Source of the DNA: Archangium sp.
Lineage (GTDB): Bacteria; Myxococcota; Myxococcia; Myxococcales; Myxococcaceae
Assembly: GCA_016792935.1 (NCBI GenBank)
Contig: JAEUJS010000455.1
Coordinates: 1-20,896 of the forward strand
DNA length: 20,896 bases
Direction of reading: 5' to 3'
Positions 8,673 to 11,418 of this stretch are shown in pieces; the first letter of the stretch is position 1; each line of letters opens with the position of its first letter. Below the pieces are notes generated by a model. The model was not told the DNA's origin. It did not search any database and was given only the letters and a program-made list of their open reading frames with translations. A program made the position numbers and the translations under genes.

Positions 8673-9287
8673 TTACAGGCGGCAGTTTCGTTTGAGAAAG
8701 CCTTCGAGCGCTTCACGCACGCGCGGAACTTCCGCGAGCAACGTCGTCGCCTCGGCGACCAGAATCAGATTCGCGCTCTCGTCAGACGTCGCAGGCTGAG
8801 CACCTTCGGCAACTTCGCCATCATGCTCGCGGCGGCCGAACTGAATGGCGGCTCCAGCTTCCGAGCGATGCGCGCCCCACTCTTCCAGCGCGCTCACCAG
8901 CACCGACAGCGGCCGCGGCTCGCTGCCCAGCAACGCCGCGAGGCCCGGAGTCGGAGTCAGCGCCACCTCGGTCGTCAAACCAAACGGAGTGATCTCCGCC
9001 GTCACACCCTCGAGCGTCGCCGCGTTCAGCTGCGCGAGCGCCTCTCCGATGCTGACGCGCCGAGGCCGATTCACGTTGCGAATCGGAGGGGGCGGCGCCG
9101 TCACATCGGGCTGCAACTTCGGCGGAGACGAGCGCGGCGCGGCCTTCACCGCCGGCTTCTTCTTCGCGGGCTTCGTGGCGGAGACCTTCTTCAACTTCGG
9201 CGCGACCTTCGTCTTCTTCGCCGAGGCCGACTTAGGCGTCGCCTTCGTTTTGGCCCGAGCCGCGGGCTTCTTCTTGACCTTGCTCAC
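8673..9287 (-). CDS. Protein with a histone-H1-like Lys/Ala/Pro-rich N-terminal tail (about 55 aa) and an uncharacterised C-terminal domain
   Basis: GTG start at 9287..9285, preceded by GGGAGG with a 6-nt spacer. N-terminus MSKVKKKPAARAKTKATPKSASAKKTKVAPKLKKVSATKPAKKKPAVKAAPRSSPPK, then an acidic/hydrophobic domain (VSIGEALAQLNAATLEGV...LLAEVPRVREALEGFLKRNCRL). The 5' 56 nt overlap the 3' tail of the MVP-like gene in another frame. Confidence 0.7.
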   Translation of the reverse strand: MSKVKKKPAARAKTKATPKSASAKKTKVAPKLKKVSATKPAKKKPAVKAAPRSSPPKLQPDVTAPPPPIRNVNRPRRVSIGEALAQLNAATLEGVTAEITPFGLTTEVALTPTPGLAALLGSEPRPLSVLVSALEEWGAHRSEAGAAIQFGRREHDGEVAEGAQPATSDESANLILVAEATTLLAEVPRVREALEGFLKRNCRL

Positions 9288-11418
9288 GCGGAGCCTCCCA
9301 GGTGCTTCTTACTCCTTCCCACCCGAGAGGAAGCCCTGAGAGCAAACGCTTCGCGACATCCGCCACCGAATCCCCGCCGAGGATGGCGAGGGGCGACAGG
9401 TTCTGCGTCAGCGACGCCGAGAACTGCTGCGCGCCGAGCGTCTTCAACGTCGCCACCAACTCAGGATGCAGCGCGGCCATCTGTTCCTTGAACGCCGCCG
9501 CCCGCGCGTCGAGCTGCTGGCGTTCCACTGCCACGCGCCGCTCCATCGACGCCGACTCAGCGGTGGAACGAACGCCGAGCGCCTCCGCGTCAGCCCGCGC
9601 GCGACCGAGCGCTTCGAGCCGCTGCGCCTCTGCCTTCGCCTCGACCTTCGCCACCTGCACCGCGCGACGCGCGACCTCGAGCTCGGCCTCGACCACCAGC
9701 GTCTCTCGCTGTGCAGACCAGATGGCGCGCGCCACGGACTCCCGCGTCTCCTCAGTCGCGAGACGGAGCTGTTCTCGCTTCCGCGCGACCTCTGCGGTGA
9801 TGGCGGTGCGCTGTGCGTCCGTGAGCAACGTCTCGACCGCTTCATCGAGGATGGACACGTCGAGCACCTCGACGTCGTAGACGCTCATCCCGTTCTCATC
9901 GAACTCGCGGCCCGCACGCTTCTCGGCCTTCTTCTCGCCGAGCACCGCGGTGCGCAGAATCTCCGCCGACGCTGCGTGGAAGCGCTCGATGCCGACCATC
10001 CGCACCGCCGCACGCACCAATGAGCCAAGGTGGTCGCACAACAACCCGACGTAGTTCGGCACGGAGAACCAGCGCGCATCATCGACTCCCTCGCGGTGCA
10101 CGAAGCTCACGCGGTACGACAACTTCACCTCGAGCTCGACGTGGTCCGCGGTGCGCACCTTGACCATGTCGCTGACCTTGTTGCCTTCGACGCGCAGGAA
10201 ACACGTCGCGAGCAGAGCGTCAGCGCTCTTCGGAGTTCCGGTGCTGAGCTCCAGCGTCTCCAGCGTCTCGTCGAACGCCAGCACCCGCACCGCCGGGCCG
10301 CGCACCACTTCACGAGACTGCGTGCCGGTGACGAGCACTGCTTCTCCGGGCGGAATCACGATGGTCGGAGCACGCGAGGCGTCGTGCTTGCCCAACTTCC
10401 ACCGCTTGCTGCTCTCGACATCGAGCGCACGCGTCACGCGTTCGACCTGCGTTGGATCCGGCAGCAGCGCGGCGGGGCCTTCGACGGTGCGCACCGCTCC
10501 GGTGTGGAGGTCGCGCAGGTACACGGCTTCCTTCGCAGCGAGCTGAACGGCGGCGACTTCTCCGAGCACCTCGACTGATTCGTTGGGGAAGAAGTAGCCC
10601 TCGCGCGCGTGCACGAAGAGCTCTTGCCCCGCCTCGTAGCGACCCGCAGGCACTGCATCTCCGTCTTTCGCTTCGAAGCCCTGCAACACGCGCACATGCA
10701 GTCCGCGGTCACGCTTGAGCGGCCACGCGGCGAACACGCGCCCACCGTTCTTGATGAGGAACTCTTCCCACGCCTCGGGGAAGACGACTGCCGGACCGCG
10801 CTCGTAGCGACGACGGCCTTTGGGTCCGCGCAGCACGCAGTACTGACCGTCGAGCAGCGTGACGGCGTTGCGCACGTAGCCGCCCTTCTCTTCCGCCAAC
10901 ACCTCGAGGCCGGTGCGCGGAATGAAGAAGCTCACCTCGCTGCCCTTGATGATGCGCTCGGTGCCGATGACGGACTTCTCTCCTTCGACGGCGTCGTAGA
11001 CGCGCAGGCGCAGGTACTGGTCTTCGGAGAGCTCATGTCCCGCGACGACGCGCGCCTTCTGTCCCGGCCAGAGCGGAAACGTCGCGGGGCCAGGCACGAC
11101 GACGCGCCGACCGACCTGCAGCTCGACCGCGGAGTTGTTCCCCTTCACCGGCTTCACCGTCGCGTCCTTCGCGGGGTTCTCGAGCACCACGTACTGCGCG
11201 CTGCTCGCCGTCACGAAGGCCTGCACGCCGGTGCCTTCTTCGTTGCGCACCGGAAGGAAGCGATCGTTCTTCAGCTCCACCAACCGCTCCGTGTTGGACA
11301 GGGAGATTTTGGTGGGGCCGACGTACAGCACGATGTCGCCCTTGGTGAGGTCCTGCACGTAGGCGTATTCGTTGCTCGCTACGAGGATGTCGCGCTCTCT
11401 GCTGTCTCTGTCGGCCAT
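9232..11418 (-). CDS. Major vault protein (MVP) homolog, 728 aa: N-terminal MVP-type beta repeats, SPFH-like shoulder domain, long cap-helix-like coiled coil
   Basis: Matches human MVP, as I remember it, along the whole length. [31 protein letters not shown] matches [41 protein letters not shown] matches [30 protein letters not shown] matches [38 protein letters not shown] matches [36 protein letters not shown] matches [42 protein letters not shown]...[15 protein letters not shown] matches [23 protein letters not shown]...FHKNSARIIRTAVFG. An Ala/Glu/Arg-rich helix of about 110 aa follows. Start placed at ATG 11418 ([13 protein letters not shown]), which aligns with the MVP N-terminus. The track's 11484 start adds 22 unaligned residues. 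Confidence 0.85.
   Translation of the reverse strand: [728 protein letters not shown]
9294..9299 (-). promoter_or_regulatory. Shine-Dalgarno sequence (GGGAGG) for the Lys-rich-tail gene, embedded in the 3' end of the MVP-like CDS
   Basis: The minus strand reads TGGGAGGCTCCGC-GTG. The core is complementary to the anti-SD and lies 6 nt upstream of the GTG at 9287. Confidence 0.6.

Follow-up and report, generated by a model that had tools for sequence, protein, structure and literature searches.

Contig JAEUJS010000455.1, from a metagenome-assembled genome (MAG) of Archangium sp., is 20,896 nt long and was analyzed in its entirety (hereafter the window). On the minus strand it carries a gene for a 204-aa protein with a lysine-rich N-terminal tail similar in composition to histone H1 (hereafter the Lys-tailed protein). 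The 5′ end of this gene overlaps a gene for a major vault protein (MVP) homolog, and a gene for a ferritin-like diiron oxygenase follows directly downstream. Comparison with related loci (designated L001, L003 and so on) revealed that the invariant genomic partner of the Lys-tailed gene is the downstream oxygenase and not the overlapped MVP-like gene. The features of the locus, all on the minus strand, are as follows.

9232–11484 (−): MVP-like gene with shoulder and repeat regions (Pfam MVP_shoulder, 3e-31; weak Vault_3 and Vault_2 matches); stop codon at 9232–9234
9294–9299 (−): GGGAGG, Shine-Dalgarno (SD)-like, located within the MVP-like gene with 6 nt between it and the downstream GTG start
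9285–9287 (−): GTG with which the Lys-tailed gene starts, the first start codon after an in-frame TAA
9232–9287 (−): overlap of the MVP-like and Lys-tailed genes, 56 nt
8673–9287 (−): Lys-tailed open reading frame (ORF), 204 aa
9123–9287 (−): residues 1–55, Lys/Ala/Pro/Thr tail; charge +19.5, predicted to be disordered, no tandem repeats
9063–9122 (−): residues 56–75, Pro-rich linker with the conserved motif PPKLQPDVTAPPPP (from the alignment)
9000–9062 (−): residues 76–96, helix RRVSIGEALAQLNAATLEGVT, identical in almost every homolog
8676–8975 (−): residues about 105–204, acidic helical C-terminal domain (pLDDT about 90)
8673–8675 (−): TAA stop codon of the Lys-tailed gene, 4 nt before the ATG of the oxygenase gene
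7853–8668 (−): ferritin-like (AurF-like) diiron oxygenase, 271 aa, downstream of the Lys-tailed gene

The Lys-tailed ORF is a genuine gene

The Lys-tailed ORF is a genuine, very rare, myxobacterial gene. The in-frame TAA lies eight codons before GTG 9287, which makes this GTG the first possible start. In all five lineages with upstream sequence, a GTG just ahead of the Lys-rich stretch is likewise the first start. Additionally, NCBI lists an identical 204-aa product with an identical start (MBL8914098.1, a hypothetical protein from an Archangium sp. MAG). These observations support the start codon given in the initial annotation, which had placed the SD sequence 56 nt upstream of the MVP stop. 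That distance holds for the GTG, whereas the SD sequence lies a further 7–12 nt upstream of it. Counted on both strands of the window, GGGAGG occurs 5 times, against 10.2 expected from shuffled sequences.

We considered the possibility of a spurious ORF and rejected it on account of the GC content at third codon positions (0.93 for the tail codons, which fits the Lys-tailed reading frame), the conservation of the ORF, the lengths of its indels, which are multiples of three, and the same gene call at NCBI. Within the tail, Lys is encoded 18 times by AAG and 2 times by AAA.

A polycationic tail, an invariant helix, and an acidic domain

Residues 1–51 comprise 18 Lys, 12 Ala, 6 Pro, and 1 Arg with no Asp or Glu, and the excess of Lys over the 4.2% found in neighboring proteins has a binomial P of 1e-12. 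In all nine full-length members of the family the tail is 45–58 aa long, consists of 36–40% Lys+Arg, and contains 0–2 acidic residues. The H1-like, Lys-rich tail described in the initial annotation is real, its composition being kept in every full-length homolog. According to the alignment, the sequence of the tail drifts among homologs while its composition stays constant. Such conservation of composition alone is a signature of electrostatic binding, and a tail of this makeup could plausibly bind DNA, RNA, or polyphosphate.

A six-frame search for Lys-dense stretches across 347 kb (the window and related loci) recovered nothing comparable apart from the tails of this family. In the predicted structure the tail has a pLDDT of 43–54. 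An origin of the tail by tandem repetition was rejected, as Tandem Repeats Finder (minimum score 30) detected no tandem DNA repeat in 8600–9400.

In the linker, the columns P56, P60, T63, A64, P65, and R70 are invariant. The helix that follows is invariant at R77–A90 and L92–T96, while whole proteins share just 52–77% identity. This invariance is a signature of a specific protein interface. AlphaFold modeled residues 1–79 as disordered and predicted residues 76–96 to be helical at low confidence in isolation (pLDDT about 58–63), which leads us to infer docking onto a partner. The helix is amphipathic.

Structure prediction of the C-terminal region, proposed in the initial annotation, yielded a well-modeled helical domain that may weakly resemble the SWIB/MDM2 fold, a twisted, helix-binding cleft of about 85 residues. 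A second model, of a homolog that represents the short variant, agrees with this layout. Residues 80–204 carry a net charge of −9, and the C-terminus of the family is conserved as LEGF(V/L)KRNC. A disordered insert of ~30 residues at about 138–170 is clade-specific, being confined to that half of the family to which the window belongs. Membership in the SWIB/MDM2 family by sequence was rejected: none of the 10 family members matched SWIB (PF02201), even at E-values up to 10, and in hhalign the probability of a match to the MDM2 N-terminal domain was 0.07%.

A small family confined to one lineage

Of 5.8 billion protein clusters searched, 10 belong to the Lys-tailed family, all from MAGs of Myxococcaceae/Archangium or from metagenomes. 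Among 185,579 species genomes (one genome per species), the family is present in 3. An exhaustive HMMER search of 1.84 billion representatives with a tail-less profile returned no remote homologs, only 5 proteins that are all members of the family. Searches of Pfam, NCBIfam, PADLOC, and PDB sequences with the Lys-tailed protein gave nothing meaningful. In particular, no homology to the H1, Hc1, or AlgP families was detected in Pfam, NCBIfam, or the exhaustive profile search. A Pfam match to RFamide_26RFa (0.002) fell below the cut-off and was taken as chance. Judging by these searches, the Lys-tailed family is an orphan confined to one lineage.

The diiron oxygenase is the constant neighbor

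The oxygenase matches Pfam AurF at 6e-6, which is below the curated cut-off. A profile of its family, searched against the PDB, recovered AurF at 5.6e-5, followed by RNR R2 and EncC, the match to EncC being weak. The putative diiron ligands E63, E97, H100, E148, E178, and H181 fall in columns that are invariant across 44 homologs, one of which is named "diiron oxygenase" by NCBI.

In every locus examined, the oxygenase gene is located directly downstream of the Lys-tailed gene and starts 4–30 nt after its stop codon or overlaps it. In L001, L003, and L007 the two genes overlap, sharing a GTGA or ATGA. In the window the oxygenase has no SD sequence of its own and its ATG is 4 nt past the stop of the Lys-tailed gene; on this basis we propose that the two proteins are made together. 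Gene order thus points to the Lys-tailed protein and the oxygenase, and not to MVP and the Lys-tailed protein, as the conserved functional unit.

Two genes follow the oxygenase in L007 (Myxococcaceae MAG STL-MYX2), at 5543–7396: one is flavin reductase-like, and the other encodes 386 aa and has no Pfam match. The flavin reductase may provide the diiron enzyme with electrons.

In the Archangium MAG of L008, the oxygenase homolog (6414–7204) is split between two frames, 6414–6605 and 6602–7204; it is either a pseudogene that arose by frameshift or a product of faulty assembly.

Beyond the oxygenase in the window lies a convergent ORF of 232 aa (7142–7840, plus strand), acidic and without a family match. 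Conserved counterparts are present in L001 (58% identity) and in L009–L012 (89–100%). This ORF overlaps a long N-terminal extension of the GH1 ORF at 5857–7326, whose true start is probably further downstream.

Repeat peptides upstream of sister oxygenases

The oxygenase family is far from limited to the Lys-tailed loci, as it comprises at least 165 clusters. In homologs at 45–75% identity, the slot directly upstream on the same strand holds short, basic, acid-poor, Pro-rich peptides. They are built of repeats of the NP[MLIV]PN type (KPTVNPMPNKP, RPTHPLNPMPNRP, RPPVIGNPLPP). The peptides are 32–164 aa long, contain from 2 to about 13 such repeats, and match no Pfam or NCBIfam family. These NPxPN peptides were found at the following positions.

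L014, 6758–6994
L015, about 6620–6994
L017, 1–75
L018, about 990–1090
L020, 1–177 (variant)
L021, 3601–3972
L022, 3497–3991
L024, about 1–100

There is no NPxPN-type peptide beside the oxygenase in L016, L019, and L025, and no MVP gene in the peptide-linked loci. In a neighbor-joining tree of the oxygenases, all enzymes from Lys-tailed loci group into a single clade, which branches from within the peptide-linked enzymes. This nesting indicates that the slot ancestrally held a basic disordered peptide, whose place the Lys-tailed protein has taken over in the Archangium-like clade.

Our literature search found no ferritin-like diiron enzyme paired with repeat peptides. The combination of an NPxPN peptide and such an enzyme may be an undescribed pairing, either of the kind seen in RiPPs (peptides that are ribosomally synthesized and then post-translationally modified) or a scaffold.

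About 4 kb downstream of the pair in L014, the minus strand carries MNIO (MbnB_TglH_ChrH) and HvfC_N (DUF2063) genes together with a 91-aa ORF (11157–13101). These three genes look like a separate RiPP cluster of the bufferin type.

Overlap with and linkage to the MVP-like gene

NCBI places the start of the MVP-like gene at 11418 (728 aa), and the protein is 100% identical to JNM17_25570. Its last 18 residues are encoded within the overlap, in a different frame from the Lys codons, so that the Lys codons of one frame correspond to a Glu/Gln/Gly-rich C-terminus of MVP in the other. The GGGAGG and the 56-nt overlap are found only in the sub-clade of the window and L009–L013, and they are identical in L009–L013. 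The GGGAGG is absent from L001, L003, L007, and L008. In L001 and L003 (9880–10010 and 1385–1515 compared), the homologous TAA is the stop codon of MVP and precedes the GTG by 9 nt. The overlap is therefore derived relative to L001 and L003, and both the overlap and the extension of MVP go back to a frame-changing deletion at the MVP 3′ end in one sub-clade.

The initial annotation had proposed that the Lys-tailed gene is expressed in a manner coupled to MVP. In this contig the start and the SD sequence indeed lie inside the MVP-like gene and no terminator separates the two genes. Given the arrangements in L001, L003, L007, and L008, a dedicated coupling to MVP is not supported as a general rule. 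A scan for consensus promoters and terminators between MVP and the Lys-tailed gene found none, although such a scan is weak for myxobacteria. As for linkage, MVP is directly upstream in four lineages (the window with L011–L013, L009/L010, L001, and L003/L004). In L007 it lies 2 kb upstream, the space between being taken by a LysR regulator and an 80-aa, Cys-rich ORF. In L008 there is no MVP within 6 kb, and the pair is flanked by a rhomboid gene in divergent orientation and a histidine kinase gene in convergent orientation.

Conversely, MVP-like proteins make up at least 825 clusters in several phyla, compared with 10 for the Lys-tailed family. Two MVP orthologs (84% and 81% identity) are followed by unrelated genes with no trace of the pair. 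Genome comparison thus depicts MVP and the pair as apparently dispensable to each other.

The MVP-like protein is mildly acidic (net charge −7), with negative segments at residues 401–600 and 701–750. At Rfam gathering scores there is no match in the whole of 1–20896, which means that the MVP-like gene has no known RNA with it, whether vault-RNA-like or of another kind; this candidate was therefore rejected for the window. We also rejected membership in a defense system for the MVP-like, Lys-tailed, and oxygenase proteins, none of which had a match in PADLOC.

Immediately upstream of the MVP-like gene, the minus strand encodes an AAA_21 ATPase of 321 aa (12062–13027), which overlaps a 188-aa ORF without a family match (11499–12065). 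The ATPase matches the PADLOC candidate defense protein HEC-01A at 2.6e-27, as well as the AriA, Old, and GajA ATPase models. The same two genes precede MVP in L009, at 54–57% identity.

Proposed role of the Lys-tailed protein

The explanation we favor, tentatively, is that the Lys-tailed protein is a dedicated partner of the oxygenase, an adaptor that anchors it to a polyanion; the binding of the protein to the enzyme and to a polyanion, and the chemistry of the enzyme, are what we infer here. The protein would act through three parts: an acid-free, flexible polycationic tail, a Pro-rich linker with the invariant helix, and the acidic helical domain. It would be co-produced with the oxygenase via translational coupling and would bind the enzyme through the invariant helix, the C-terminal domain, or both. 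The tail would then tether the pair electrostatically to nucleoid DNA, RNA, or polyphosphate. Dps is a DNA-binding ferritin-like protein with a Lys-rich N-terminal tail, and the outcome proposed here would be a Dps arrangement split across two polypeptides. In the Archangium-like clade the pair would have landed behind an MVP-like gene and, in one sub-clade, become nested in it, with the result that all three would be co-expressed there.

Such a role is in line with the oxygenase as downstream neighbor in every locus, with a slot ancestrally occupied by a basic disordered peptide, with a tail conserved in composition next to a helix conserved in sequence, with the inconsistent link to MVP, with the H1-like tails known on other functional domains, and with the flavin reductase of L007, which fits a redox enzyme. 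Several points weigh against it. The synteny comes solely from Myxococcaceae MAGs and metagenome contigs that are close relatives, and shared descent accounts for part of it. Additionally, the NPxPN peptides are closer in appearance to multi-core enzyme substrates than to anchors, which favors a substrate reading. Finally, the strong SD sequence inside the MVP gene, together with MVP adjacent in four lineages, could indicate a three-way functional unit.

The peptides lead to the best-surviving alternative, a possible though unlikely one, in which the Lys-tailed protein, like the NPxPN peptides, is a ribosomal substrate of the oxygenase. Oxidation would take place in the disordered, basic, Pro-rich region, and the helix and domain would serve as a recognition or recruitment element or as the mature body. 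Repeat peptides of 32–164 aa with 2–13 NPxPN copies directly upstream of an oxidative enzyme correspond to the way in which a precursor and the enzyme that modifies it are usually arranged. The six conserved diiron ligands and the nearest structural relatives, which are oxygenases such as AurF and not ferritins, are consistent with this, as is the flavin reductase beside the enzyme in L007. The linker motif QPDVTAPPPP is also loosely like the KPTVNPMPN unit, but this likeness is within chance for Pro-rich sequences. The Lys-tailed protein itself, with 170–215 aa and a folded domain, is unlike known precursor peptides, and its tail is conserved in composition alone, not in sequence. Moreover, there is no consistently adjacent protease or exporter, and our literature searches yielded no ferritin-like diiron enzyme that acts on ribosomal peptides.

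An improbable alternative is the one put forward by the initial annotation, in which the protein is an accessory of an MVP shell whose tail loads RNA, DNA, or polyphosphate or docks to an acidic lumen. In an extended form, the cargo recruited by the Lys-tailed protein would be the ferritin-like enzyme, and the result would be a bacterial nanocompartment based on a vault. The genomic setting of the window lends itself to this idea: MVP immediately precedes the Lys-tailed gene in four lineages and lies 2 kb upstream of it in a fifth, the start and SD sequence lie inside its gene with the 56-nt overlap kept in two sub-lineages, no terminator separates the genes, and MVP is mildly acidic at net −7. 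Encapsulins classically carry ferritin-like proteins, and the enzyme has a weak match to EncC. What speaks against a shell accessory is that the pair occurs in L008 with no MVP within 6 kb, that MVP orthologs at 81–84% identity lack the pair, and that the peptide-linked oxygenase loci lack MVP. The sizes of the two families (at least 825 MVP-like clusters against 10) point in the same direction. There is also no homology to vPARP or TEP1 and no Rfam RNA in the window, and all of the adjacency comes from close relatives.

We regard as very improbable a particular form of this idea, a vault-type shell with the Lys-tailed protein as adaptor, in which the helix and the SWIB-like domain would capture the enzyme and the tail would dock the enzyme or a polyanion inside. 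If true, it would be the first prokaryotic vault-based nanocompartment with a defined cargo, analogous to encapsulins with ferritin-like cargo.

A stand-alone nucleoid architectural protein, with the H1-like tail and SWIB-like domain working as in SWIB-4 (an H1 motif plus a SWIB domain, with reported DNA binding, DNA compaction, and complementation of an hns mutant; PMC4154389) and a merely operonic adjacency to the oxygenase, agrees with the tail composition but is highly doubtful, as the fold match is weak and without sequence support, and neither an occurrence in just 3 of 185,579 genomes nor strict translational coupling to one enzyme is expected of a general chromatin protein.

Comparison with known systems

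H1-like tails on functional domains that bind DNA or polyphosphate are known in bacteria and plastids, from AlgP of Pseudomonas (PMC9239181), DdbA (PMC3643593), and SWIB-4 (PMC4154389). Hc1 and Hc2 of Chlamydia are histone-H1-like polycationic proteins (PMC2848022), and DdbA of Streptomyces combines an H1-like with a DksA-like domain (PMC3643593). The Lys-tailed protein shares with AlgP, Hc1, Hc2, and DdbA a disordered, acid-free stretch of ~50 residues that is rich in Lys, Ala, and Pro and joined to a separate functional module, and it would be expected to bind DNA or polyphosphate electrostatically. It differs from AlgP and Hc2, with their KPAA repeats and pentamers, respectively, in having no tandem unit. 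It also differs from all four in showing no sequence homology to them, in its orphan domain, and in its coupling to a diiron oxygenase. Plastid SWIB-4 is similar in that an H1 motif stands beside a SWIB domain (PMC4154389), as an H1-like tail does here beside a domain that may be weakly SWIB-like.

The likeness to Dps, an analogy only, consists in the combination of a ferritin-like dimetal protein with a flexible Lys-rich tail. Here, however, the tail and the ferritin-like fold would reside on two co-translated polypeptides, and the enzyme is nearest to AurF, not to Dps or ferritin.

Eukaryotic vaults contain vPARP with its INT domain, TEP1, and vault RNA as minor components (10.1101/872010). 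The points in common are that the Lys-tailed gene adjoins an MVP homolog and that a nucleic-acid-binding accessory is conceivable. In contrast to them, the protein has no Pfam homology to vPARP (INT) or TEP1 (TROVE), there is no vault-RNA-like Rfam match, and the linkage to MVP is inconsistent. Our literature search found one preprint on bacterial MVP homologs, without operon analysis (10.1101/872010), and nothing on partners of bacterial MVP. The Lys-tailed protein is a concrete candidate for what, if anything, these homologs carry.

The RiPP pair MbnA/MbnBC and other MNIO systems (PMC9060507, PMC10214503) likewise have a small gene directly upstream of a non-heme iron oxidative enzyme, and repeat peptides hold that upstream slot in the sister oxygenase lineages. 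The enzyme here is ferritin-like, however, and not of the MNIO/TIM-barrel type, and the Lys-tailed protein is large and has a folded domain. The Lys-tailed gene does adjoin the presumed modifying enzyme, as expected of a RiPP precursor, but a short leader/core peptide with a conserved motif is seen in the NPxPN peptides of the sister loci and not in the Lys-tailed protein. The module formed by an NPxPN peptide and the oxygenase could be a new class of peptide-modifying enzyme or a new mode of enzyme localization.

In general, H1-like tails on bacterial proteins are known. What is new is the combination of such a tail with an orphan, possibly SWIB-like domain, an invariant helix, obligate coupling to a diiron oxygenase, and occasional nesting in an MVP gene.

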